A DNA stretch of 64,000 nucleotides from Bdellovibrionales bacterium (lineage in GTDB: Bacteria > Bdellovibrionota > Bdellovibrionia > Bdellovibrionales > UBA1609), in contig DAHVQG010000003.1 of the NCBI GenBank assembly GCA_027317865.1, positions 32,001 to 96,000 on the forward strand. The letters are read 5' to 3'. The notes under the pieces were generated by a model. That model had not been told where the DNA came from and did not search any database. It worked only from the letters and a program-made list of their open reading frames with translations. The translations under genes were made by a program, and so were the position numbers. Shown piece by piece: positions 41,098 through 54,250 of the stretch. Each line of letters starts with the position of its first letter. The stretch's first letter is position 1.

Positions 41098-42131
41098 TTT
41101 TTCCGCTTTTAGCCGGATTTCAGTCAATTTTTCGCGCCCCGGTCACTTGGGCGCTGTTCTTTTTGAATTTGGCCGTTTTGGTTTACACCTATGTGCCCGC
41201 GCAAAAATCGCAAATTGTTTTAGAAAATGAGTTACGCCAACCGGCTTTCAGTCAAATGCAGGGTCTCGTCTTTGCCCATTACATTAAGTCGAATCCGACG
41301 CGATATTTGGCCAGTGTGGTGAATCTTGCGAATCGAGCAGTGGAGCCTGGCGGCCGAGATGGTCGTGAAATTTTGGGTGGCATTGCCGTTCGCGATAACG
41401 GATTTATCAACCGCTCCACGCGCCTCACGGATAATATCGGCGATCCTATTGCGTTCAACTGGTGGAAGAAGAAGGTTGCTGAATTTAAAAGCGTGCGTGA
41501 TGCCGACCCGAGCTATCAACTTGGAGTGACCGCCGCACATAATGATCTCAAACATTGGATCACCTACCAGTTTGTCCACAGCGGGGTCGCACACTTCTCT
41601 GGCAATATGCTTTTCTTTCTTATTTTCGGTTGTAGCCTTGAAATGATTTTTGGCGGTTTGGCCGTGCTTGTTATTTATTTGATGTCAGGCATAGCGGGAG
41701 CCATGATGTTCATGACGGTAAACCACGGATCGGCCATTCCACTTATTGGCGCAAGCGCTGCAATTAGCGGTATTGCCGCATTCTTTTGCGTTATGCTTTG
41801 GACTCGTCCCGTTCGTTATATCTATTTTTTATTTATACCAAAACGCGATTATGTGGGTTTTGCGTATTTGCCCGCGTGGATCACTTTGGTGCTTTGGATG
41901 CTTTCAGATATCGCAGGGCAGTGGGCTACGCCTCCCGGGTTGGGTGGTATCGCTTATGCGGCGCACTTCGGTGGCGAATTATGCGGTATCGCGGCCGCGC
42001 TTATTTTGTTGAGTATGCGTAAAATTCGAGGTCAACCATTGCTACCAGAGCTCAATAATTGCCCATCATTTTGGAGCAAACCCTCGGCGAATGGTGTTCT
42101 CGGTAACAACTCGCGGGTCCATGTATTGTAA
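41094..42131 (+). CDS. Rhomboid-family intramembrane serine protease
   Basis: FVHSGVAHFSGNM, GASAAISG and AYAAHFGG motifs. Confidence 0.93.
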   Translation: MIFPLLAGFQSIFRAPVTWALFFLNLAVLVYTYVPAQKSQIVLENELRQPAFSQMQGLVFAHYIKSNPTRYLASVVNLANRAVEPGGRDGREILGGIAVRDNGFINRSTRLTDNIGDPIAFNWWKKKVAEFKSVRDADPSYQLGVTAAHNDLKHWITYQFVHSGVAHFSGNMLFFLIFGCSLEMIFGGLAVLVIYLMSGIAGAMMFMTVNHGSAIPLIGASAAISGIAAFFCVMLWTRPVRYIYFLFIPKRDYVGFAYLPAWITLVLWMLSDIAGQWATPPGLGGIAYAAHFGGELCGIAAALILLSMRKIRGQPLLPELNNCPSFWSKPSANGVLGNNSRVHVL

Positions 42132-45077
42132 AAGGTATTCTGGGCCGCCGGTTTTACTTCCAAGCCCTGACATTTTAAAGCCACCGAACGGATGGCGCCC
42201 GACCATCGCCCCCGTGATTCCGCGATTCACGTAAAGGTTGCCGCACAAAAATTGATCACGCACTTTTGCGATATTGGCAGGGGAGCGCGAATAAAGTCCG
42301 CCGGTTAAACCGTATTTTGTGGCATTTGCGATCTCTATTGCTTCGTCGAGATTATTCGCTTTTATCACAGCTAGGACTGGACCAAATATTTCTTCTTGCG
42401 CCAACTCGGAATTCGGGTCGACATCCGCGAAAATATGCGGGCCAATGTAATACCCTCCGCTTGGGGCTTCGCCACGGTAAACCAGACGCGATTGCGTCCC
42501 AGCACCCTCGCTTTGCTCGGAAAATTTTTGAATCGTGCGTGTGATACGATCAAATGCTTCGTGATCGACAATTGGGCCCATGTAAGCATGCGGGTCGGCG
42601 GCATCGCGCACATAAATGCTGCGAGCCGCTTCGACAAGACGATTGAGAAAGCGTTCGTAATTTTCTTCAAGTACAATCACTCGGCTGCATGCCGAACATT
42701 TTTGCCCTTGATATCCAAAAGACGAATACAAAACTCCAGTAACGGCCTCGTCAAGATCTGCGTCCGAGTCGATAATTATTGCGTTTTTGCCGCCCATTTC
42801 AATAATCGCACGTTTCACGAAATTTTGGCCGGGTTGAACATTTGCGGTTTGTTTTACAATTTCAAGACCCACGGCTCGTGAGCCAGTGAAACTAATGGTT
42901 CGAATGGCGGGATGCGCGACGAGATAGGCACCGACGTCTTCGCCCAATGCTGGAACAAACGAAACCACTCCCTTGGGGCAACCGGCTTCAAGCAAATGGC
43001 GCATAAGTCGTGCGCCTATGAGTGAGCTTTGCTCCGCCGGTTTCATGATGCACGTATTGCCACTAACAATTGTGGCGGCCACTTGGCCGCACAATATCGC
43101 AAGCGGAAAGTTCCACGGAGAAATAACAAGTGTCGGACCGCGAGGGATATGTTCGAGCCGACTGTCTTCACCGAGTACAAAACTAACTCTTAAACCCGCT
43201 CCAAGCCGCTCGGCTTCGCTCGCGTAGTATTCACAGAAATCAACGGCCTCGGCAATATCGCCATCGGCTTCCGTCCAAGTTTTGCCGACTTCTAGAACTT
43301 CAAGTGCCATGAGTGAAAAACGCTCTCGTCGAAATATAGTCGCGAGGTTGCGCAAAACTTTCGCGCGTTCACGGGCTGGAGTCGCCCGCCAATTCGTAAA
43401 AGATTTCACGGCCGTTGCAACGGCCAAATCCGCTTCGGCTCGGGTCGCCAGTTCTATTGTTCCTACAGTTTCGGTTGTACAGGAGGGATTTTCACGCGCG
43501 ATCGTCGGTGCTTGCTGCGGCCGAATTTCGCGTCCGTCGATAATTGGCCGAACCACTCGTTTCGAGGATTGCGCACGTACCGTGCGTAAAGCTTCATCCA
43601 TTTTCTCGCGGTTCTTATCAATTCGCCAATCTAAAAGCGGTTCGTTATAAAACCGCCCCGGTTCACGGTCGGGCACTGGCTTTGATTCGGTCATGATCGC
43701 CGCTGGATTCTGCAACAATTTTTTCGTTGAAACGTTCTCCGCAAACTTCGACCGCAAAAATGATTCATTCGACGTGTTTTCGAGTAAGCGGCGCACCAAA
43801 TAAGCCATGCCGGGTATTAATTCGCCAATCGTTGCATATTCTCGAACGCGATAGCCTTGTTTGACGAGCGCCTTTTTTATCGGGTCGGCCATACCGTAAA
43901 GCATTTGAATTTCAAATGCGCGCGAATCAACGCCGAGCTTCTTTGCCGCGACTATAGTTGATGCCATCGACCGAACGTTGTGAGTGCCAGCGGCAAGGCG
44001 CACCCATTGATGATTTGAAAGCATCGCATATGCGCACTTTTCGTAATTATAATCGCTTTCATATTTATTGGTGAAAACCGGAATCGGCCAACCCGCCTGA
44101 TCACTCCACAAGACCTCTTGATCCCAATAGGCGCCTTTTACAAGACGCACGGTAATAGGTGTGCCACGCTTTTGTGCAAATGAAATCAATTTATTTGTGT
44201 CGGCGAGGGATTCACGCAAATACGCTTGTACGACAATGCCGAAATGCGGGTACGAGCGGAATTCATCTTCGAGAAGAAGTTCTTGAAATACCTGTAGCGT
44301 CATGTCTTTGAAACGGTATTGTTCCATGTCGACGTTGACGAAAACACCGCGTTCACGCGCCAGCGAAAAAATGGGGCGCAAACGATCTTTCAATGTGCGA
44401 ACCGAATCGCTCCACGCCTTTTCTGAAACTTGCGAATAAAGAGCCGTCAACTTAACTGAAACGTTCACTTTGGGGATTGGTCCACGATCGTCGCTGTCGA
44501 TTTGCGGATTATTTGGCCACGTTTCGGCATCCTGGCAAAGCCGGCGGATAAGATCGAAATAGCGCGATTGGTATTCAAGCGCTTCCTTTTCAGACAGAGT
44601 TGCTTCTCCCAAAAGATCAGCTGTGAACGCGAGAGAATTTTCACGCGCTTTACGCAAAACTTTCAGCGCCGCTTCCGGATTTTCGCCGGTAATAAACATT
44701 TTGGCCATTTGCGTGACATTTTTTCGGATCGCGCCGGCCATCAGCGCTGGTGCCAGAGAACCGACTCCGAGTCCGAAACTTAAAATACCCGAAGCATCTT
44801 CTGGTAGATCCGCAAAATATTCTTTCAGGTGGCGCGCGACCTCCGAGCTGGAGTTCAAATACGGCAAGACATCGACGAAGCGAAACATCCGCGTCTTGAA
44901 CTGTTCATTTTTCATGCTCCAGTCCATAATGCGGCCGTACCACCAATCTTTGTTGAAAATGGACGACGAATCGTTGGCGATCATTTGAAAAATCTGTTCG
45001 CCCGTTTGTTCCACCTCGGCTTCAAAATCGACCGCCTGAGTTGTGGATTGCGAACGTTCAAAATCTTGAGTGTTCAT
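42066..45077 (-). CDS. putA: Bifunctional proline dehydrogenase / P5C dehydrogenase
   Basis: RLVKGAYWD, YLVRRLLEN, EMGGKN, GQKCSAC and EEIFGP motifs. Confidence 0.97.
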   Translation of the reverse strand: MNTQDFERSQSTTQAVDFEAEVEQTGEQIFQMIANDSSSIFNKDWWYGRIMDWSMKNEQFKTRMFRFVDVLPYLNSSSEVARHLKEYFADLPEDASGILSFGLGVGSLAPALMAGAIRKNVTQMAKMFITGENPEAALKVLRKARENSLAFTADLLGEATLSEKEALEYQSRYFDLIRRLCQDAETWPNNPQIDSDDRGPIPKVNVSVKLTALYSQVSEKAWSDSVRTLKDRLRPIFSLARERGVFVNVDMEQYRFKDMTLQVFQELLLEDEFRSYPHFGIVVQAYLRESLADTNKLISFAQKRGTPITVRLVKGAYWDQEVLWSDQAGWPIPVFTNKYESDYNYEKCAYAMLSNHQWVRLAAGTHNVRSMASTIVAAKKLGVDSRAFEIQMLYGMADPIKKALVKQGYRVREYATIGELIPGMAYLVRRLLENTSNESFLRSKFAENVSTKKLLQNPAAIMTESKPVPDREPGRFYNEPLLDWRIDKNREKMDEALRTVRAQSSKRVVRPIIDGREIRPQQAPTIARENPSCTTETVGTIELATRAEADLAVATAVKSFTNWRATPARERAKVLRNLATIFRRERFSLMALEVLEVGKTWTEADGDIAEAVDFCEYYASEAERLGAGLRVSFVLGEDSRLEHIPRGPTLVISPWNFPLAILCGQVAATIVSGNTCIMKPAEQSSLIGARLMRHLLEAGCPKGVVSFVPALGEDVGAYLVAHPAIRTISFTGSRAVGLEIVKQTANVQPGQNFVKRAIIEMGGKNAIIIDSDADLDEAVTGVLYSSFGYQGQKCSACSRVIVLEENYERFLNRLVEAARSIYVRDAADPHAYMGPIVDHEAFDRITRTIQKFSEQSEGAGTQSRLVYRGEAPSGGYYIGPHIFADVDPNSELAQEEIFGPVLAVIKANNLDEAIEIANATKYGLTGGLYSRSPANIAKVRDQFLCGNLYVNRGITGAMVGRHPFGGFKMSGLGSKTGGPEYLLQYMDPRVVTENTIRRGFAPK

Positions 45078-46063
45078 AATTTTGGTCTTTGTTTATAGCC
45101 TTGTTTTTCTAGGAGGCGCACCATACCGTCAATATGATTTTTTGGTACAATGGCGAGCATCTTAGCCGCGCCCTGGCGTCCCCGCAATACACGAATAATA
45201 TTTTTGACCATCGTTACACTTCTACCGTTCATAATGCTTATGCCCATAGGGAAGTAACGCTGGTACCAGGCTCGCAATTTGAATTGCGGAGAGGTGATTA
45301 TGAAATGATTGGCATAGCGGTAAAAGTTGGCACCGGTAAAGGCCAAATCAGTGAACCATTGGGCCCAATTCGGTATGTGGCCGGCCGCGAAGTAGAACCC
45401 CGTAAAAAGCGCCGCTGAAATATACGAGCTAATGGACTCGAAGTTTTCTCCCAAAGTGGGGGAATGGTTTTTTTCAAGATCAATAATTTGGAGCTGCGGT
45501 GAGAATAGCGATCGACCCAGAGAAGCATTTTCGATGTCGACAACGGTGACGGCATCGGGTTGACCGTACTGGCCGTATATTCGGCCCAAAATTCGAATAA
45601 TGCCAAGTCGTTTTGTCACGTCCGCCAAACTGAAACTAAAATGTTGTCCGGCTAAATGAAACAACCGGGCATTGATTTGACCACCCCAAGTACTGTGAAC
45701 GCCGTTACCGGTGACACCGATATGGTCAAAATGGCTCATGAGGGGACGCGCGCTGGTTAAATTGACATTGGTTTTAGGAGCAATCAGTACAACTGTTTTC
45801 AATTGACCGTTGATCGGCTTATGTAAGACCCGAATATCAAAATCGGCTCGTGCTTCTTGGATCGCAGACTCGAATGTTCTAAAGGGTAACGGCGGTGCCG
45901 GCGGACTTTTTAGAATTTGATAACAAGAACCGGCAATTTCTCCTGATGAAAGTGCTGTTGTTGGATCGGCAACGGCCTGATGGCCACGTCCAATTAAGCC
46001 CAAAATGAAAACGGCGACGATCAAACTTTTAAAATTTGAAACTAATGTATGTCGGGGTTTCAT
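45074..46063 (-). CDS. Hypothetical membrane or secreted protein with weak TraB/GumN-like C-terminus
   Basis: R..TMVKNI..LAIVPKNHIDGM. Confidence 0.55.
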   Translation of the reverse strand: MKPRHTLVSNFKSLIVAVFILGLIGRGHQAVADPTTALSSGEIAGSCYQILKSPPAPPLPFRTFESAIQEARADFDIRVLHKPINGQLKTVVLIAPKTNVNLTSARPLMSHFDHIGVTGNGVHSTWGGQINARLFHLAGQHFSFSLADVTKRLGIIRILGRIYGQYGQPDAVTVVDIENASLGRSLFSPQLQIIDLEKNHSPTLGENFESISSYISAALFTGFYFAAGHIPNWAQWFTDLAFTGANFYRYANHFIITSPQFKLRAWYQRYFPMGISIMNGRSVTMVKNIIRVLRGRQGAAKMLAIVPKNHIDGMVRLLEKQGYKQRPKL

Positions 46064-46166
46064 TACGTGCGTTAATATACCAAACGGCAGCACGCGCCGC
46101 CATAACGCCCTTACATTAAGCGTGGTAATAATTTTCAAATTATGGAGCAAAAAGTGGCAGTTCGGG

Positions 46167-46802
46167 CTATTTACCTGATTTTAATTTCGCCACCCATTCC
46201 TCAGATTGTTTAACAACGCGCTGGTACGCCGGTCGATCCGTGCAACGTGCGACGTATTTTTGAAACGCGGGACGTTGCTCCAATATTTTGGTCATAAAGC
46301 CAAAGCCAATGTTTGACGACAAATAGAGGTCCGCCGCCGTGAAATGATCGCCTAAAAGGAATGGCTTGTCGCTCACGGCTTTTTCAAGTGTGTTAACGGC
46401 GTCTTCAAAGGTCCCGTAACTCAGTGCCCCAGTGCGCTCAACTGGCGGTCGCCCGAGCATTTTGTCAACAATGGCCGGCTCAGCGCAAAGGCCGCCGAAA
46501 AACATCCAACGGTAATAAGTGCCGCGTTCAGGCGAGTCTGTTTCTGGCGCGAGTTTCGCTTTTGAAAACGCATCGGCTAAATAAGTGATAATCGCCGGTG
46601 TCTCGGTGATAACGACTCCACGGTGAACAATCGCCGGTACCTTACCCATGGGGTTGATCGCAAGATATTTTGGCTCTTTATGTTCGCGCTTATCAAAACT
46701 CAAAAGTTTAGCTTCATACGGCGCGCCGGTTTCTTCGAGCATCCAATGTACGGTGCGTCCGCGTGACATCGGGTTTGTGTAAAACGTAACTTTGTTATCC
46801 AT
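46167..46802 (-). CDS. Glutathione S-transferase
   Basis: PMSRG..WMLEE, INPMGKVP and FTAADLY motifs. Confidence 0.95.
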   Translation of the reverse strand: MDNKVTFYTNPMSRGRTVHWMLEETGAPYEAKLLSFDKREHKEPKYLAINPMGKVPAIVHRGVVITETPAIITYLADAFSKAKLAPETDSPERGTYYRWMFFGGLCAEPAIVDKMLGRPPVERTGALSYGTFEDAVNTLEKAVSDKPFLLGDHFTAADLYLSSNIGFGFMTKILEQRPAFQKYVARCTDRPAYQRVVKQSEEWVAKLKSGK

Positions 46803-46838
46803 GCTGCCCCCCTTGAATTGTTAAAGCATACACCCAAC

Positions 46839-46872
46839 AAAAACAGGCGGGGAGGTTTTATCCTCCCCATGC
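46839..46872 (-). terminator. Terminator of the candidate sRNA
   Basis: GGGGAGG-ATAAAA-CCTCCCC then GCCTGTTTTT. Confidence 0.65.
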
Positions 46873-46949
46873 GGTGGGCTAATTGGCGGGCTGATTTGCT
46901 CCCCTTTATGGTCCTCCAGATCAGGAGAAGGAGCGGGTGGGCCGTTGTT
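46839..46949 (-). ncRNA. Candidate sigma54-dependent small RNA (~110 nt)
   Basis: Lies between a -24/-12 promoter and a GC hairpin with U-run; internal hairpin; three GCCCRCC motifs. Confidence 0.6.
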
Positions 46950-46959
46950 TAGTGAGTAC

Positions 46960-46976
46960 TGCATACTTGAGACCAA
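46960..46976 (-). promoter_or_regulatory. sigma54 (-24/-12) promoter
   Basis: TTGGTCTCAAGTATGCA = GG-N10-GC. Confidence 0.6.
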
Positions 46977-47293
46977 CTTTGGTGGAGTCAAAATGGAACA
47001 AAAATGCTGTATAAGCCCAACAGTTCGTTTTTCGCACGAGCCAAAAGTTTTACTTATGTGTCACTTTCAGCGCACTTGGTAGCGAAACGGGACCGTAGCA
47101 CAAATGTGGAACAAAAATTGTCATTTGCCCGTAGTCGAATTGTCTACATTTTAGGCGATTCATTTCAGCTACTGATTTCAATCAGTTCGGCGTAATTCGG
47201 CGGTTTATGGTTGTAGTGTATTCGTCGTTGCCAACAATTGGTAGCCAGGGGTCAGTTTCTTTGTCATCTGGCAAATTTTGAAATCATAAACGA

Positions 47294-47335
47294 AATCAAA
47301 CTGTTGCGAAATGGCCCGCGGGCATTCGATTTGCC
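47294..47335 (+). promoter_or_regulatory. IHF site plus sigma54 promoter of the matrixin gene
   Basis: AATCAAACTGTTG matches WATCAANNNNTTR exactly; GGGCATTCGATTTGC = GG-N10-GC. Confidence 0.65.
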
Positions 47336-47348
47336 ATAACGGTAAAGT

Positions 47349-48032
47349 ATGAACTACGAACAATTGCCCCCCAAAAAAACACGATTTTCTCAGATGAAAA
47401 TTATGGCAATACTCGGAATTTTAACGGGATTGTTCTTGGTTGAAGCTTGCGGGCGTAAAATTAATCCTCAATCGGCCGACGGTTTCGTTGAAAACCAAAA
47501 CTTGCAACGAGTTTCATGGAGTCCAAACGACTTGCCGGTAAATCTATATTTAGACGCGTCGGTTCCGCAACAATATGTTCCTACGATTGAAAAGGCCATC
47601 GCCATTTGGAATCACGTTGGGCAAACAATCGCCCACGAAGACTTTTTTGTTTTGCGTACAGGCGACCCCGGCAGCCCGACGCCGGCGCAGGACGGTTATA
47701 ACAAGATCTATTTTGTACACAACTGGAACACCACTACTGATAACGAACAAGGGTTGACTACAGTCTATTGGGCGGGGACGCGGATTTATGAAGCCGATGT
47801 CCGGATTAATGCGACGGGAACATTTCAATATTTTACTGAAAGTACAAACCCAAACCGTTACTCGGAGGTCGATTTTGAATCCTTGATTATTCATGAGTTG
47901 GGCCATGTGCTGGGCCTTGCCCACGTAACTGCGAGCGATAGTGTGATGCAACCGAGTCTAGCTGATGGCCAAGTTCGAAATACACCTGGACCGACGGACT
48001 ATAAAGATTTGGCTTCTCAGTACGGGACATGA
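47349..48032 (+). CDS. Matrixin-family (M10) metalloprotease lipoprotein
   Basis: HELGHVLGLAH, SVM Met-turn, lipobox VEAC; start may be 47394. Confidence 0.92.
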   Translation: MNYEQLPPKKTRFSQMKIMAILGILTGLFLVEACGRKINPQSADGFVENQNLQRVSWSPNDLPVNLYLDASVPQQYVPTIEKAIAIWNHVGQTIAHEDFFVLRTGDPGSPTPAQDGYNKIYFVHNWNTTTDNEQGLTTVYWAGTRIYEADVRINATGTFQYFTESTNPNRYSEVDFESLIIHELGHVLGLAHVTASDSVMQPSLADGQVRNTPGPTDYKDLASQYGT

Positions 48033-48411: not shown

Positions 48412-49629
48412 TTAACTTTCTATCGGTAATTTTGGAATTCGAACGACGAGATAACCGTTCTCGTAAGTTTTCTCGACATCTTTAGGAATGGTCGGATGTT
48501 CTAGCGGAATTGTTTCGTGAAATGACTCTGCGGAATTGGACGAAAAGGTTTTGCCCGCCAACTTCGTCTGATCGTTAAATTCACGCTCGCAGCTGATTAC
48601 GGCTTTATTTGATTCGACATATACATTCACATCGTCTTTTTCAAATTCCGGTACTTTCGTTTTCAAAATATAAAAGTTGGGCGTTTCTTCTAGCGTCGTT
48701 TCAAATGCGTGCATTCGGTAAAATGGATCTTCTGAAGCCTTTTCGTAAACGCCAAACTCTTGAAATAGGCGTTTCTTTTGGTTCATCAATGCATTTATAA
48801 ATTGATTATGTTGATTTTCGAGTTGCCCTTCATCGACCCCTTGGTTTGCATTATATATTCTATGAAAATCTTGCGCTTGTTCGCGCAGCGCCTTTGATTC
48901 GATTTTACGTTGTTCCGCCAATTGCTGTTGTTCCAACTGCGTTTCGTGTTTTTCATCACTCTGTTGGGTCATTCGTCTTTTTTGCATCTCTGCCTTATAG
49001 CCGAGATCTTGCTGGGCGAGTTGTTTTTTGTATAATTTTTTTTGTGTCTCTAGGGCCTGTTGTCCGTGTTCACGAATGGCTTTGAGTTTACTGCTGTAGC
49101 GTTGATTGGCGAGTTTGAGTTGCTCCGTACCGCGATCCGTTTCATTACTGAGATTTTCTTCGTCTGTTTTTTGTTGGGCGGCAAGACGCTCCTCGCCCAT
49201 AGTTTTTTCTTGAGCGTATTTGGTTTGTAGGTCTCTTTGCAGCCGGTCGAGTTTTTGGCTGTCTAATTTTTGTTGATTGCTATATAGGTATTGCGATTTT
49301 TCACGTTGATCCTGCAACGTTTCGTCTGAAGCCGTTTGTTGTTTTTTGAGCTGGTCGCGTGTTTCTTGCCGAATGTGATTAATGGCGGCTTCGGTTTGCG
49401 CTTGGTCCTCATTGACCTCTCGATTGGAACTTTTTCGTTGCTGTTGCAACTGTTCATGCGTCTCGTTTTGAATGTTATTGAGCGCAGATTTATTTTGCGC
49501 CTGTTCTTCGGCTATTTCTCTTCGGTAACGTCGGCGGATATCCTGAAGCTCTCGCTCGTTTTTCTGAATAACTTCCGCTCGGCGTTGTCGATACCTATTG
49601 TTGAGGTCTGCAATGGAATCGGCCATCAA
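48412..49629 (-). CDS. Long coiled-coil protein with C-terminal Hsp20/alpha-crystallin domain
   Basis: Q/E/K/R heptads; ..VPEFEKDDV..YENGYLVVRIPK. Confidence 0.85.
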   Translation of the reverse strand: MMADSIADLNNRYRQRRAEVIQKNERELQDIRRRYRREIAEEQAQNKSALNNIQNETHEQLQQQRKSSNREVNEDQAQTEAAINHIRQETRDQLKKQQTASDETLQDQREKSQYLYSNQQKLDSQKLDRLQRDLQTKYAQEKTMGEERLAAQQKTDEENLSNETDRGTEQLKLANQRYSSKLKAIREHGQQALETQKKLYKKQLAQQDLGYKAEMQKRRMTQQSDEKHETQLEQQQLAEQRKIESKALREQAQDFHRIYNANQGVDEGQLENQHNQFINALMNQKKRLFQEFGVYEKASEDPFYRMHAFETTLEETPNFYILKTKVPEFEKDDVNVYVESNKAVISCEREFNDQTKLAGKTFSSNSAESFHETIPLEHPTIPKDVEKTYENGYLVVRIPKLPIES

Positions 49630-50549: not shown

Positions 50550-51395
50550 ATGAGCCGTCGAATGGCAAAAAAAGATCTTGAAAAGATCGTCATCGATGAG
50601 TCGAAAAATCTCGTTTTTGATTCTGAAGACGAGCTTTATCAACATTTCTTCAAAGAGATTTCTTTTTTGGAGAAAGAGTTCTTTTCGCTTCGGCCGCAAG
50701 ACGACATCACCGAAGCGGAATTCGACAACTACGAAAAAAATCTGAGCGTTCTTCTCGAGAATCCAGATGAAATTTGGCATGATACCTCGACTATAGCCGG
50801 GGTTGATTTTTATATTTACATTCGAAAATTCGAAGTTGAAGAGCCGGAGGGTGACGAGTCCGTACTGTATCATGTCGCATTCGTCTATTTAACCGGTAAA
50901 GTTCCCAGTTTTGTTTACCTGCACTTTCCGACTCGCAGTGAAAGTCTTGTCGCCAAATACCGGCGCGGCGAGAAAAGTTATGACCGAATTGAACAGAATG
51001 TCCCGTTGGGCGCTATTGACGGGGATGCTTTACATGAAAGTGACGAGCTCGCACGCGGGCTTTATTTCGCAATGCTAAAAGTTCGCAGCGAAAGCGACAT
51101 AAAAGAAGCTGAATTTCGTGATTTTGCACGGCTTCGCGAAAGTACGATCGAGCAACCTGACGAAATATGGCGCAACAATGATTCTATGGGGAATGTCTTG
51201 GTCAGTTTTATCCGCGAGTATCCGGAAGAAGAATTGAAGGGGCTATATTATATAGCTGTTACTCTTGAGGATATGGCATCGAACAGCCACGCGCTTTTGT
51301 TTTCGTTTCCGACTGTGGACGAAGCGCTCGTCGGCCGCTACCGGCATGGCGAAAATTTGCAAGCTGATGAGGTCGTGCAAGAGGCGAGTCACTGA
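50550..51395 (+). CDS. Acidic protein with an internally duplicated PBECR2-like domain
   Basis: Two copies of PDEIW..[YF]IR..FPT....LV..YR.GE. Confidence 0.7.
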   Translation: MSRRMAKKDLEKIVIDESKNLVFDSEDELYQHFFKEISFLEKEFFSLRPQDDITEAEFDNYEKNLSVLLENPDEIWHDTSTIAGVDFYIYIRKFEVEEPEGDESVLYHVAFVYLTGKVPSFVYLHFPTRSESLVAKYRRGEKSYDRIEQNVPLGAIDGDALHESDELARGLYFAMLKVRSESDIKEAEFRDFARLRESTIEQPDEIWRNNDSMGNVLVSFIREYPEEELKGLYYIAVTLEDMASNSHALLFSFPTVDEALVGRYRHGENLQADEVVQEASH

Positions 51396-51469: not shown

Positions 51470-54250
51470 CTACTTATGCTTTGCGGGCATCGATGATTGA
51501 GCAGACGGCAATCCCAACATTCCGCCCGGTCCGGAACTAATCAAAGCCATCGTGACAAGGTTGCTCTCCGTTTCGAATTTATTTATTTCTTGTTGGGTTG
51601 CAGGCGGGAGCTTAGCGCCAGAAGATTTGCTGGTGAAGTGATCCGTCATCTCTCGGTAAGCTTGGATAAGCTGCAATCGATGGTTGTACATCCACATCGG
51701 ATTTTCGCTTCGATCTGCCGCCAAAAGTTGGGTTGCAAGTAAGCGGAACTTTAACGGTACCGTAAATTTCGGCAATAAAAGCATAGTCGTTGTGGATTTT
51801 TTGCCGGTCAATTTTTGTAATCCGAGGGGCAGTTTAACCGTTGGCCCCGCAAGTTTTTCGACACCACCGCTTAAAAGAAATTGCGCTTCGACTTTGAACA
51901 AATATCTTCCAAAATCGTTAGCGAGCGGGTTATCGGCTAACCTTAAAGGTTGCGGCTGTTGGCCGGGGCCCGACCTGGTGACCATGCCGTTGCCGGCGAG
52001 CAGTTCCAAGTTGTGTTTATTGTATTCTTCAGCAAATTTTTGAAAGAAGAGCCGCGCATTGGTGTTGATCGTATTAATTTCGTGCGGGCCAAATGCACTC
52101 GACCCGTTCGGGATAAGCCCTTTTTCGTAACGGCTGTACAATAAATGATCGAGGCGAGCCATTTCTGTGTTCACAAAATTGGGGGGCAAAAATCCGAAGA
52201 TCTTACTAAATCCGCCGTTTTGTTTAATTTGGTCGTCGATGCGATGCCATTCTTGCCACCGTACCATGCTGGCGTTTGATTCGTCGACGGCCGTGAATTG
52301 GCGCTCAACCGACACGAGTCGAACTTCTTTTGTGAATTGCTTCATCAGCTCAAGACGCGGTGCCAGCATTCGTTCGGCATCTTCTGTCGGATGCAGCACA
52401 ACTTTGCTGACGGGAATGGCGAGTTCGTTTTGAAACGGTGTTTTGGCGGCTAAGTACACCTCAAGTAAAATATCGGGTAACGTTTTGAGATTATGCTCGC
52501 CCTCATACGCGACGTAACCGACTTCGGAATTACCCGAATCGAATCGCTGACAATCATAATATTTTGGATCTCCCGAGTCGGTACAATAAAGCGGCCATTT
52601 TGCGGGGCTTTTGCCGCCGTATAAAAAGCGGATGGTATCGCGGTCGTAAGCCATTGCCTTACCGCGCGCGATTTGGTCACCAAGCATAAAGTCGTCAAGC
52701 ATTGGCATGTAATCCATCACCGAACTGCTGACGACGACACCTTTGGGAGTGTGCCCTGTTTTAAAATAAGATTGAAGTAAGCTTGCGCGCTCAGCCATCG
52801 TATAATTCGCTGCGAGCGTTCCGGCGAAATTGTGGCGGAGCCCTAAAGTGTGACCGACTTCATGGGCGACCACCACACGAAGTAAATCCGAAGCCGCTCT
52901 TTGAATGACGGAGTTTGTGGCTCCGTTGTTTATAAACCAGTCAATCGTGCTTTGAATTCCGTAAGACCCGTCATAATCGCATAGCGGCGGTTTGAAGAAT
53001 CCTCGAATTCCGATTCGAAGCGACGAAGTTTGTTTCGTCGTGTTGCTAGTCGAAACTCCCCCATGAAGTTGCCGGACCAAATCTTGAAGTGAGTTAAACA
53101 CAAATGAGCTCGAAATATAAACTTGCGCGTGCAGAATTTCACCCGTGCGCGGGTCCGCCTGCACATCGGCATACGACATTGGAGCCGTGTTATACGGCAC
53201 CCATTGAATCATATTGTAATCGGGGTTTGGTGCACTCACGCCTTTAGGGGTCATCACGACTTTAACGATCGGCATGCCTAACATGTGGTTCCAGTACAGA
53301 GCGCCGCTTTTGACCGCTTGAACATATTGCGCGGGGGTATTGGCCGAGATCGCATAGGTGATCGGAAAATTGCTTGGATTCCATCGCTCGGCGTATTGTA
53401 CGGAATCTCCGTCAAAGGTCATTTGCGGTGCGGTTTGAAAATAACCGTAGTGAGTAAAATTGTCGAATTCTTGAAATGGTAGATAATTTGGATCCGGTCG
53501 ATACGGCGACAAATAATAGCGAACTTCAAACGGCATTGATGCCCCGGGTTGCCCGGATAACGGATTGCTCAGGTAAGCCTGCGCCACTTGGCGAATGACC
53601 AGGCGATGAATGGATTGCGTGTCTTCGATGCGTGCGCTGTCGATATAACTGTCTTCAAGCGGCAGACTTTGAAACTCGTTCACCGGATTGTATTGTGAAC
53701 CGCCAAAGTCCGAACCGGACATGTCGGTGAAGAAAAACAATTTTGACATCCCCGAATTAAAATCAAAAACAATTCTTGTTTTGTTGGTAGAAAGAATCGG
53801 AAAGCGCGCCAGAAGCAAGTGTTGTGGCAGATCGGTGGTCACCGAATTGCCGTTATTTGATTCGAGCATATACAAATTATTATTGCGCTTTATGAATGTA
53901 ACGATCCGGCTACGAATTGAATTGCTCCACGCGACGGGGACGACCTGCGTGAATTCCCCTTGAAGGAGAAATTCTTTATTTAGCGCAACCCGCGCAATCG
54001 AAATGTGATAATGGGAGTCAATACCTAGTTCGGCGCTTTGGCTCGGCGAAACCACGTGAAATGATTGACCGATATTTTTCGGAGCCAACTTTGACTGGCT
54101 CTTTTGGCCGCAACCGGAAAGTAACCCGAGAGCCAAAATTGAGACTAATGAACAGGTAAACTTGCGCAAAACAAAGCGACGAGTTTTTTTGCGCTGTAGT
54201 TTTAAAAATTGTGTTCCAAAAAAACTTCGCGAACGAAGGACCTTACCCAT
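51470..54250 (-). CDS. Zinc metalloprotease lipoprotein (EcxA/DUF4953-like metzincin)
   Basis: Lipobox LSGC; DPRTGEIL, HEVGHTLGLRHN and SSVMDY motifs. Confidence 0.92.
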   Translation of the reverse strand: MGKVLRSRSFFGTQFLKLQRKKTRRFVLRKFTCSLVSILALGLLSGCGQKSQSKLAPKNIGQSFHVVSPSQSAELGIDSHYHISIARVALNKEFLLQGEFTQVVPVAWSNSIRSRIVTFIKRNNNLYMLESNNGNSVTTDLPQHLLLARFPILSTNKTRIVFDFNSGMSKLFFFTDMSGSDFGGSQYNPVNEFQSLPLEDSYIDSARIEDTQSIHRLVIRQVAQAYLSNPLSGQPGASMPFEVRYYLSPYRPDPNYLPFQEFDNFTHYGYFQTAPQMTFDGDSVQYAERWNPSNFPITYAISANTPAQYVQAVKSGALYWNHMLGMPIVKVVMTPKGVSAPNPDYNMIQWVPYNTAPMSYADVQADPRTGEILHAQVYISSSFVFNSLQDLVRQLHGGVSTSNTTKQTSSLRIGIRGFFKPPLCDYDGSYGIQSTIDWFINNGATNSVIQRAASDLLRVVVAHEVGHTLGLRHNFAGTLAANYTMAERASLLQSYFKTGHTPKGVVVSSSVMDYMPMLDDFMLGDQIARGKAMAYDRDTIRFLYGGKSPAKWPLYCTDSGDPKYYDCQRFDSGNSEVGYVAYEGEHNLKTLPDILLEVYLAAKTPFQNELAIPVSKVVLHPTEDAERMLAPRLELMKQFTKEVRLVSVERQFTAVDESNASMVRWQEWHRIDDQIKQNGGFSKIFGFLPPNFVNTEMARLDHLLYSRYEKGLIPNGSSAFGPHEINTINTNARLFFQKFAEEYNKHNLELLAGNGMVTRSGPGQQPQPLRLADNPLANDFGRYLFKVEAQFLLSGGVEKLAGPTVKLPLGLQKLTGKKSTTTMLLLPKFTVPLKFRLLATQLLAADRSENPMWMYNHRLQLIQAYREMTDHFTSKSSGAKLPPATQQEINKFETESNLVTMALISSGPGGMLGLPSAQSSMPAKHK

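Follow-up and report, generated by a model that had tools for sequence, protein, structure and literature searches.

In Pseudomonas, the non-coding RNAs CrcZ/CrcY and NrsZ depend on sigma-54 and answer nutrient or envelope signals. CrcZ captures Hfq/Crc with A-rich motifs, and GlmY is a decoy for RapZ. The Qrr RNAs of Vibrio require Hfq, and qrr1 lies divergently beside a gene of its own circuit. In the RsaE/RoxS-type sRNAs of the Firmicutes, unpaired C-rich motifs occur repeatedly and pair with G-rich ribosome-binding regions independently of Hfq. Transcription of the Qrr RNAs has been described as sigma-54 dependent (PMC10162802), and GlmY/GlmZ of enterobacteria are likewise reported as sigma-54 dependent sRNAs (PMC3045617). 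As outlined in PMC5568312, the Pxr RNA, a developmental gatekeeper, is about 108 nt long, forms multiple stem-loops, has a predicted sigma-54 promoter and keeps a conserved intergenic position. The regulatory RNAs of predatory bacteria are almost unexplored. For Bdellovibrio bacteriovorus HD100, eight attack-phase sRNAs are listed in PMC3627812, where no significant homology outside B. bacteriovorus is given for them.

Here we describe a predicted RNA gene on the minus strand of the window, which is the whole stretch of 64,000 nt of Bdellovibrionales DNA that was analysed. The nearest analogue is Pxr of related myxobacteria and of Myxococcus, a genus once grouped with Bdellovibrio. The two RNAs are similar in size and in their sigma-54 promoter type, and Pxr, as its published probe shows, likewise has a C-rich stretch. 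They differ in architecture, Pxr having three stem-loops and the RNA described here a bipartite stem-loop and a 3' hairpin with an unpaired linker between them. They also differ in their neighbours, which are the enhancer-binding protein gene nla19 for Pxr and a matrixin-like protease gene here. Our covariance model R2, run with filters off on 11 loci in which the published Pxr probe sequence of 26 nt occurs, gave at most 8.8 bits (E 0.06 or worse), and thus no sign of Pxr homology; the hits were not consistently at the probe site, and these loci were taken as Pxr by probe match alone.

The Qrr RNAs are comparable in that they are sRNAs of about 100 nt that depend on sigma-54 and an enhancer-binding protein and expose a conserved unpaired seed, but the Rfam models do not match our RNA, an Hfq gene was not found here, and the neighbour is the protease gene and not the activator gene. 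The RsaE/RoxS RNAs share with it the short length, the repeated unpaired C-rich motifs and the mechanism that we propose below, but Rfam again gave no match, the phylum and the promoter type are different, and the motif is CCYAYC here and CCCC/UCCC there. For CrcZ/CrcY, NrsZ and GlmY/GlmZ there was no Rfam match either, and their motif types and partner proteins are inapplicable here. The search of Rfam 15 with E values up to 10 returned for the RNA only RAGATH-25, a chance hit over 17 nt that scored 14.2 bits where the threshold is 49 (E 3.5), and in the whole window only tRNAs scored above the thresholds. A match to a known Rfam family, which by the initial annotation would have removed the novelty, was thus not obtained. 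Our search of the open-access literature found no description of the RNA, of its HD100 loci or of a sigma-54 dependent sRNA in Bdellovibrio. As judged from the genomes compared here, the RNA is a new family among the predicted sigma-54 dependent sRNAs, order-wide and single-copy. Overall, we think that it is best explained as a stand-alone sigma-54 dependent sRNA that would form a module with the protease gene and act in trans through its C-rich boxes (probability about 0.5).

The RNA gene, its structure and its distribution

Direct reading of the sequence from 46976 to 46836 located all the minus-strand elements that the initial annotation had named, that is, the promoter, the motifs and the hairpins (Table 1). 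The RNA of the window is a full-length covariance-model match at G000:C33:78836-78949 of the source genome, with 114.3 bits for model R1 and 81.1 bits for model R2, and it is present there as a single copy. A terminator scan placed a terminator at 46869-46848. The fold z-score of the window RNA was weak (-1.37). Because the evidence from the window by itself was weak, the case rests on conservation, covariation and the fixed position of the promoter in other genomes.

Table 1. Predicted RNA gene, its promoter region and its neighbours; positions are counted from the first letter of the window.
Feature	Position	Strand	Remarks
Matrixin-like zinc metalloprotease gene	47349..48032	+	227 aa as called; Pfam PF00413, E 1.7e-9
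Matrixin promoter GGGCATTCGATTTGCC	47320..47335	+	sigma-54 type; GG 47321/2, GC 47333/4
Distal enhancer-like box GGTCCCGTTTCGCTACC	47078..47094	-	in the family GGTGTC-N-TTTTG-CACC; lies about 100 nt before the -24 element
GTGACAC half-site, then ATAAG-TAAAACTTTTGG	47041..47064	-	genus-conserved; four-genome alignment
Promoter-proximal box TTTTGACTCC	46984..46993	-	family form AAAGTGACYCC; aligned upstream regions
RNA promoter TTGGTCTCAAGTATGCA	46976-46960	-	sigma-54 type; GG 46974/46973, GC 46962/46961, 10 nt between
Predicted RNA, about 114 nt	46836..46949	-	5' end estimated from the -12 element, 3' end from hairpin and U-run
5' GCCCACC motif	46942-46936	-	genus-specific in alignments, unconserved across the family
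Stem-loop P1	46898..46934	-	two-part hairpin GCUCCUUCUCC...GGAG...GGGGAGC; RNAalifold
P1 helices in the window			basal GCUCC/GGAGC, apical CUCC/GGAG
Box A, GCCCGCC	46891-46885	-	family form CCYAYCA; predicted unpaired, C-rich; conserved column block
Box B, GCCCACC	46879-46873	-	family form ACCYACC; predicted unpaired, C-rich; conserved
Stem-loop P2, GGGGAGG-AUAAAA-CCUCCCC	46868-46849	-	terminator-like; followed by C-rich tail, then UUUUUGUU
U-run UUUUUGUU after P2	46843-46836	-	read from sequence
GST start codon	46802	-	34 nt past the RNA 3' end

When 41 related genomes were searched at the DNA level, three congeners proved to have the stretch, at 87% (G006), 71% (G001) and 70% (G002) identity, and these matches span the predicted RNA. 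Model R1, built from the four sequences of the genus, matched over its full length in 52 of the 109 family genomes. Model R2, built from 30 hits, matched 64 of the 109 genomes and 26 of 35 genera, nearly always with one copy per genome; among the family genomes that are at least 90% complete, 48 of 83 were positive. Across the order, R2 matched 102 of 151 genomes and 51 of 70 genera, and none of the 13 families sampled was without a hit. In a phylum-wide sample, 21 of the 24 genomes of the order were positive versus 2 of 127 genomes from other orders, and we rejected the latter two matches (E 3e-4 and 8e-4) as false positives, without a sigma-54 promoter and without the features of the family. 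The complete genome of Bdellovibrio sp. HCB337 carries the RNA. A search for loci by means of a matrixin alignment returned mostly generic zincin motifs and only six Bdellovibrio-like loci, three of them with the RNA.

The consensus RNA consists, from 5' to 3', of a short 5' tail, the stem-loop P1, an A/C-rich linker, the stem-loop P2 and a C-rich tail. P1 has a basal helix GGCUC/GAGCC and an apical helix that is usually CCAC/GUGG. Its tetraloop ends in a conserved UC, and its 3' internal loop, UCCUAA, is conserved as well. The linker, of about 30 nt, holds two boxes, CCYAYCA and ACCYACC, that are 5-8 nt apart, and its mean unpaired probability is predicted at 0.7-0.9. P2 is a G/C-rich hairpin of the form GGGGAG.../...CUCCCC. 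The three GCCCRCC motifs of the initial annotation fared unequally in this comparison: GCCCGCC and the second GCCCACC are the window's versions of the conserved boxes A and B, although in the looser form CCYAYC, while the 5' motif is confined to the genus. In one congener (L009, genome G006), a 29-nt insertion lies between the promoter and the first conserved helix of the RNA, suggesting that the 5' tail tolerates large changes.

Covariation supported the predicted structure. In the alignment of 68 family members, double changes occurred in all 17 modelled pairs (185 cells), and 90.7% of the cells were paired, a level reached by none of 500 shuffles. The covariation score was 0.444 for the family, against 0.08 or less for controls with slid partners. 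The 21 members from other families showed double changes in 13 of the 17 pairs, with a score of 0.540 against 0.111 or less for the slid controls. For P1, double changes were seen in all pairs of the family alignment and in 6 of 10 pairs in the other families, and for P2 all pairs covaried. These alignments were fitted to the covariance model, which biases all these values in favour of the structure. A hairpin followed by a U-run, as had been proposed for the 3' end, is present in the window and was found by the terminator scan, but a tract of at least 5 U in the 8 nt after P2 is present in only 44 of 89 members, which makes it uncertain where the RNA ends and how efficiently it is terminated.

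The RNA region of the window is overlapped by two ORFs, one of 56 and one of 44 aa, yet no reading frame is conserved among the homologues: at most 42 of 84 members keep any one frame open, and the longest ATG/GTG ORF of a member has a median length of 14.5 codons. These results agree with the initial view of an unannotated, structured, non-coding RNA gene, and we regard it as almost certain that the RNA gene is real.

Sigma-54 type promoters of the RNA and of the protease gene

Within the window, the promoter pattern by itself is not distinctive. TGG-N9-TGCA was found 13 times against 8.3 expected, which is chance level, and when the genome was scanned with a matrix derived from the family, the RNA promoter came about 41st among 103 hits. 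Its position relative to the RNA is, by comparison of loci, highly conserved. Of 68 family loci, 60 have TGG-N8-TTGN or TGG-N9-TGC 20-27 nt upstream of the model start, where 1.3 would be expected from shuffles; in other families, 20 of 21 loci have it at the same fixed distance, against 0.4 expected. In the family the consensus reads yTGGyMy-N5-TTGC, and the RNA promoter agrees with the standard used for comparison, which has GG at -24, GC at -12 and the form TGGCAC-N5-TTGCW. From the fixed position of the promoter, the 5' end of the RNA would lie near 46949. The sigma-54 type promoter that had been claimed from the window is therefore conserved at a fixed distance in most loci, and the RNA gene is very probably sigma-54 dependent.

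Conserved words are found further upstream. The word GACACC peaks within the 20 nt directly upstream of the -24 GG, with 11 occurrences. In the upstream regions of 81 loci, GACACC/GGTGTC was present in 52% versus 3% of control stretches and was concentrated at -80 to -120, TGACAC/GTGTCA was present in 46% versus 1%, and TATAAG in 40% versus 4%. This layout, with words 80-120 nt from the -24 element and others adjoining it, is what would be expected of a putative enhancer. We propose that the RNA of about 114 nt would be transcribed from a sigma-54 dependent promoter requiring an enhancer-binding protein, and that the activator is probably bound at the conserved GACACC/GGTGTC boxes. In the source genome, of 2.6 Mb, we found 15 strong PF00158 matches representing enhancer-binding protein genes. 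The rpoN core-binding domain was found at G000:C22:3-878 (-), with the N-terminal and core-binding parts only; the DNA-binding domain was missing from the search because the gene is cut by the contig end.

The constant neighbour of the RNA is the gene for the matrixin-like protein. All 29 orthologues compared have HExxHxxGxxH and, in a lipobox-like context, an N-terminal Cys, suggesting that the protease is probably a lipoprotein. Of the first 30 loci, 29 have a gene of about 210-230 aa upstream in divergent orientation, and a script placed a matrixin gene upstream of the RNA in 48 of 68 family loci; the same was found in 18 of 21 loci of other families. In four loci (L128, L131, L132, L145), the matrixin gene is downstream of the RNA and co-oriented with it. 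The association with matrixin orthologues that the initial annotation had raised thus extends across the Bdellovibrionales, with orthologues beside the RNA across the order.

The matrixin gene has a sigma-54 type promoter of its own. Of 48 loci, 40 have GG[CT][ACT][CT]-N5-TTG[CAT] next to the matrixin start, where 1.6 would be expected, and the pattern is also kept in the four co-oriented loci. The presence of this promoter in 40 of 48 loci suggests that the conserved unit is a pair of sigma-54 promoters, one for the lipoprotein protease and one for the RNA. We propose that the RNA and the gene for the matrixin-like lipoprotein protease would constitute a two-gene module kept throughout the Bdellovibrionales, usually in divergent orientation. 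With sigma-54 promoters before both genes, one signal probably switches on both.

In the source genus, only 14 nt separate the end of the matrixin promoter from the first ATG (window 47349-47400 (+)). The matrixin mRNA would then be either nearly leaderless, or translated from a real start at the downstream ATG of the signal peptide (MKIMAILG...). Beyond the matrixin gene, the window encodes a 405-aa protein with a C-terminal HSP20 domain (48412-49629 (-)), a PBECR2 nuclease-domain protein (50550-51395 (+)) and a 926-aa Met-zincin (DUF4953) protein (51470-54250 (-)).

For B. bacteriovorus HD100, Table S1 of PMC3627812 places Bd1264 (3-isopropylmalate dehydrogenase) at 1,198,682-1,199,683 and Bd1265 ('metallo proteinase related protein') at 1,200,178-1,200,819, which leaves a gap of 494 bp (PMC3627812). 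Judged by gene order alone, this succession of Bd1264, gap and Bd1265 corresponds to the Iso_dh-RNA-matrixin arrangement in the complete genomes of that group. None of the eight HD100 sRNAs listed in PMC3627812 falls in the gap. A copy of the RNA at putA (Bd1251) in HD100 was considered and rejected, as the RNA adjoins the leuB-like gene in that group. In the same Table S1, if its attack and growth columns are ordered as the rows for pilus genes suggest, Bd1265 is given 1 attack-phase read and 0 growth-phase reads, and Bd1264 is expressed in growth phase (PMC3627812). Bd1265 is absent from the examined rows of three supplementary tables of a predation proteome, in which Bd1264 and sigma-54 (Bd0843) are present (PMC12546842). 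Nearly silent and absent from these proteome tables, Bd1265 suggests that the module may belong to a part of the life cycle beyond laboratory predation.

Downstream genes and candidate targets

We classified the genes downstream of the RNA by hand in 68 family loci. The gene directly downstream on the same strand is putA in 26 of them, with its start 35-150 nt past the RNA, and a convergent gene follows in 23. The convergent genes mostly encode an OmpR-type response regulator, and otherwise Hsp33, FecR-like, TonB-like, DUF3617 or unassigned proteins. The other same-strand genes in the family are GST (in the window), cNMP-binding, GDPD, hydrolase, Iso_dh and matrixin genes. Four contigs (L012, L016, L129, L152) end directly after the RNA. 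In the 21 loci of other families, the downstream gene is convergent in 11, putA in 2 and Iso_dh in 5; Iso_dh is probably also downstream in L189 and L190, masked by a longer ORF on the opposite strand.

Overall, a convergent gene lies downstream in 34 of 89 loci and ends 3-400 nt past the hairpin, and these loci have kept the RNA intact together with its promoter and boxes. Since the RNA and the promoter are kept in 34 of 89 loci without a co-directional gene, they are not a leader of GST or putA, in agreement with the independence from the GST gene that the initial annotation had supposed. A constant position in the 5'-UTR of one gene class, as expected of a riboswitch or leader, was not found among the loci, the downstream genes being unrelated or convergent. 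By this comparison of genomes, the RNA is likely to be an independent transcript. Read-through into a same-strand downstream gene (putA, or GST here) is possible as a second role.

In the window, the GST gene is followed by a gene of 358 aa without a Pfam match and then by putA (42066-46802 (-)). In relatives, putA comes directly after the RNA, or a convergent OmpR-type regulator gene lies in between, and from these gene orders the spot between the RNA and putA appears as a hot spot of gene insertion. As for a promoter of putA itself, -10-like hexamers between the RNA and putA were at chance (12 of 26 loci versus 11.7 expected), and a conserved TAGACT/TATAGT-CCG box before putA was visible in one genus. 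Among the sequencing runs listed for this DNA, none was an RNA run. Three metatranscriptome contig sets from the same study yielded one unrelated 35-nt piece within GST and none on the RNA, and are uninformative either way.

Targets of the linker were searched among the neighbours and in the source genome. There was no excess complementarity of the linker to the 5' regions of matrixin (mean z -0.23, n=44) or to the start regions of putA (mean z +0.55, n=21) or of the response regulator (mean z +0.33, n=9), and we rejected these three neighbour genes as linker targets on the mean z. The linker alone was used in these comparisons because RNAduplex with the full-length RNA gave long meaningless duplexes with the matrixin leaders. 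A scan of 2460 crude gene starts in the source genome produced no outlier, the best value being -32.8 kcal/mol against a mean of -15.4 (sd 4.8).

The most continuous duplex was with a CagX-like conjugal-transfer gene, located at G000:C22:277060-277786 (-) and, in the relative G006, at C4:277714-278436. These two genes are 98% identical, compared with 87% for the RNA loci, and the gene was not found in three other congeners; it thus looks like a recently shared mobile element, and we rejected it as a target.

Genes for Hfq and ProQ were not found in the source genome, which is 99.2% complete. One CsrA gene was found, at C22:194080-194235. CsrA binds GGA motifs, and RNAs that sequester CsrA/RsmA expose many of them in loops. 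In our RNA, GGA occurs only on the 3' side of the P1 apical helix and within the P2 stem, and the exposed conserved motifs are C-rich.

Proposed mode of action and alternative readings

The exposed, repeated C-rich boxes, together with the failure to find Hfq, suggest direct pairing with G-rich mRNA segments. We propose that the RNA would act in trans and free of Hfq, its C-rich boxes pairing with G-rich stretches of mRNAs. Base-pairing through the boxes is put forward tentatively, at a little under even odds. The main rival is that the RNA binds or sequesters a protein, with the two CCYAYC boxes and the conserved P1 loops as binding sites. The two boxes are similar, unpaired and conserved in their spacing of 5-8 nt; the terminal loop of P1 (..UC) and its internal loop (UCCUAA) are conserved in sequence, which would be needless for an RNA that acts purely by seed pairing; and no mRNA target stood out in the searches. 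However, we know of no bacterial C-rich-binding regulator in the Bdellovibrio group, and CsrA, the only global RNA-binding protein that we found, prefers GGA, in which the RNA is poor. We consider protein binding unlikely, although less so than the readings that follow.

Another reading makes the RNA a cis-acting 5' leader or attenuator, in which the promoter would drive the operon that follows (GST-hypothetical-putA in the window, at other loci putA or a leuB-like gene) and P2 would be a regulated terminator. It would account for the close same-strand putA in 26 of 68 family loci, for the GST gene that starts 34 nt past the RNA in the window with putA two genes further, and for the same-strand Iso_dh in one genus of complete genomes; the weak U-tract in half of the members and the chance-level -10-like boxes before putA are also in its favour. 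The same promoter and boxes are kept intact, however, in the 34 of 89 loci with a convergent next gene, the same-strand genes (GST, cNMP-binding, putA, Iso_dh, GDPD, hydrolase) are unrelated, the constant neighbour is the upstream protease gene, and the linker has no complementarity to the start region of putA. In HD100, moreover, the leuB-like gene is expressed in growth phase, whereas the adjacent protease gene is silent according to the expression table of PMC3627812. This reading is accordingly quite improbable. Still less probable, and in our view very much so, is a convergent-gene terminator or antisense device, in which sigma-54 transcription would enter the 3' end of the OmpR-type regulator gene and interfere with it. 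Although a convergent response-regulator gene ends 4-40 nt past the hairpin in many loci of several families and the U-tract is weak, the window locus and more than half of the loci keep the RNA without a convergent regulator, and neither the covarying P1 nor the conserved unpaired boxes are needed for a terminator or an antisense transcript.

The preferred reading of a stand-alone sRNA bears on the biology of the order. Being present as one copy across the 13 families sampled, with a covarying structure and a promoter for an alternative sigma factor, the RNA is a strong candidate for a core regulator. It would also be a test case for Hfq-independent regulation by C-rich seeds in a Gram-negative lineage. 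A bolder idea, which we regard as rather unlikely, is that the RNA and the protease are an ancient two-part switch, ancestral to the order and silent in the standard attack and growth phases, in which the RNA, as an Hfq-independent riboregulator or as a decoy for a C-rich-binding protein, would reprogram the physiology of the predator when the protease is deployed. If true, this RNA would be the first in predatory bacteria to have a regulatory role across a whole order.

The pairing of RNA and protease provides two reporters for one signal, and thereby a direct route to the activator and the inducing condition. A search for the activator among the sigma-54 type promoters of the source genome that carry the same upstream words yielded one further candidate promoter and no regulator gene. 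This second promoter, AGTTGGTCCGAAGTTTGCGTAT (17.7 bits), lies outside the window at G000:C33:157550 (+) (L205, about 751-772). It has GACACC boxes at -137 and -51, a layout like that at the RNA promoter, and is followed by an ORF (L205:831-1520) for a putative lipoprotein of 229 aa with an LGAC lipobox and no Pfam match. The gene behind this promoter may belong to the same regulon as the RNA.
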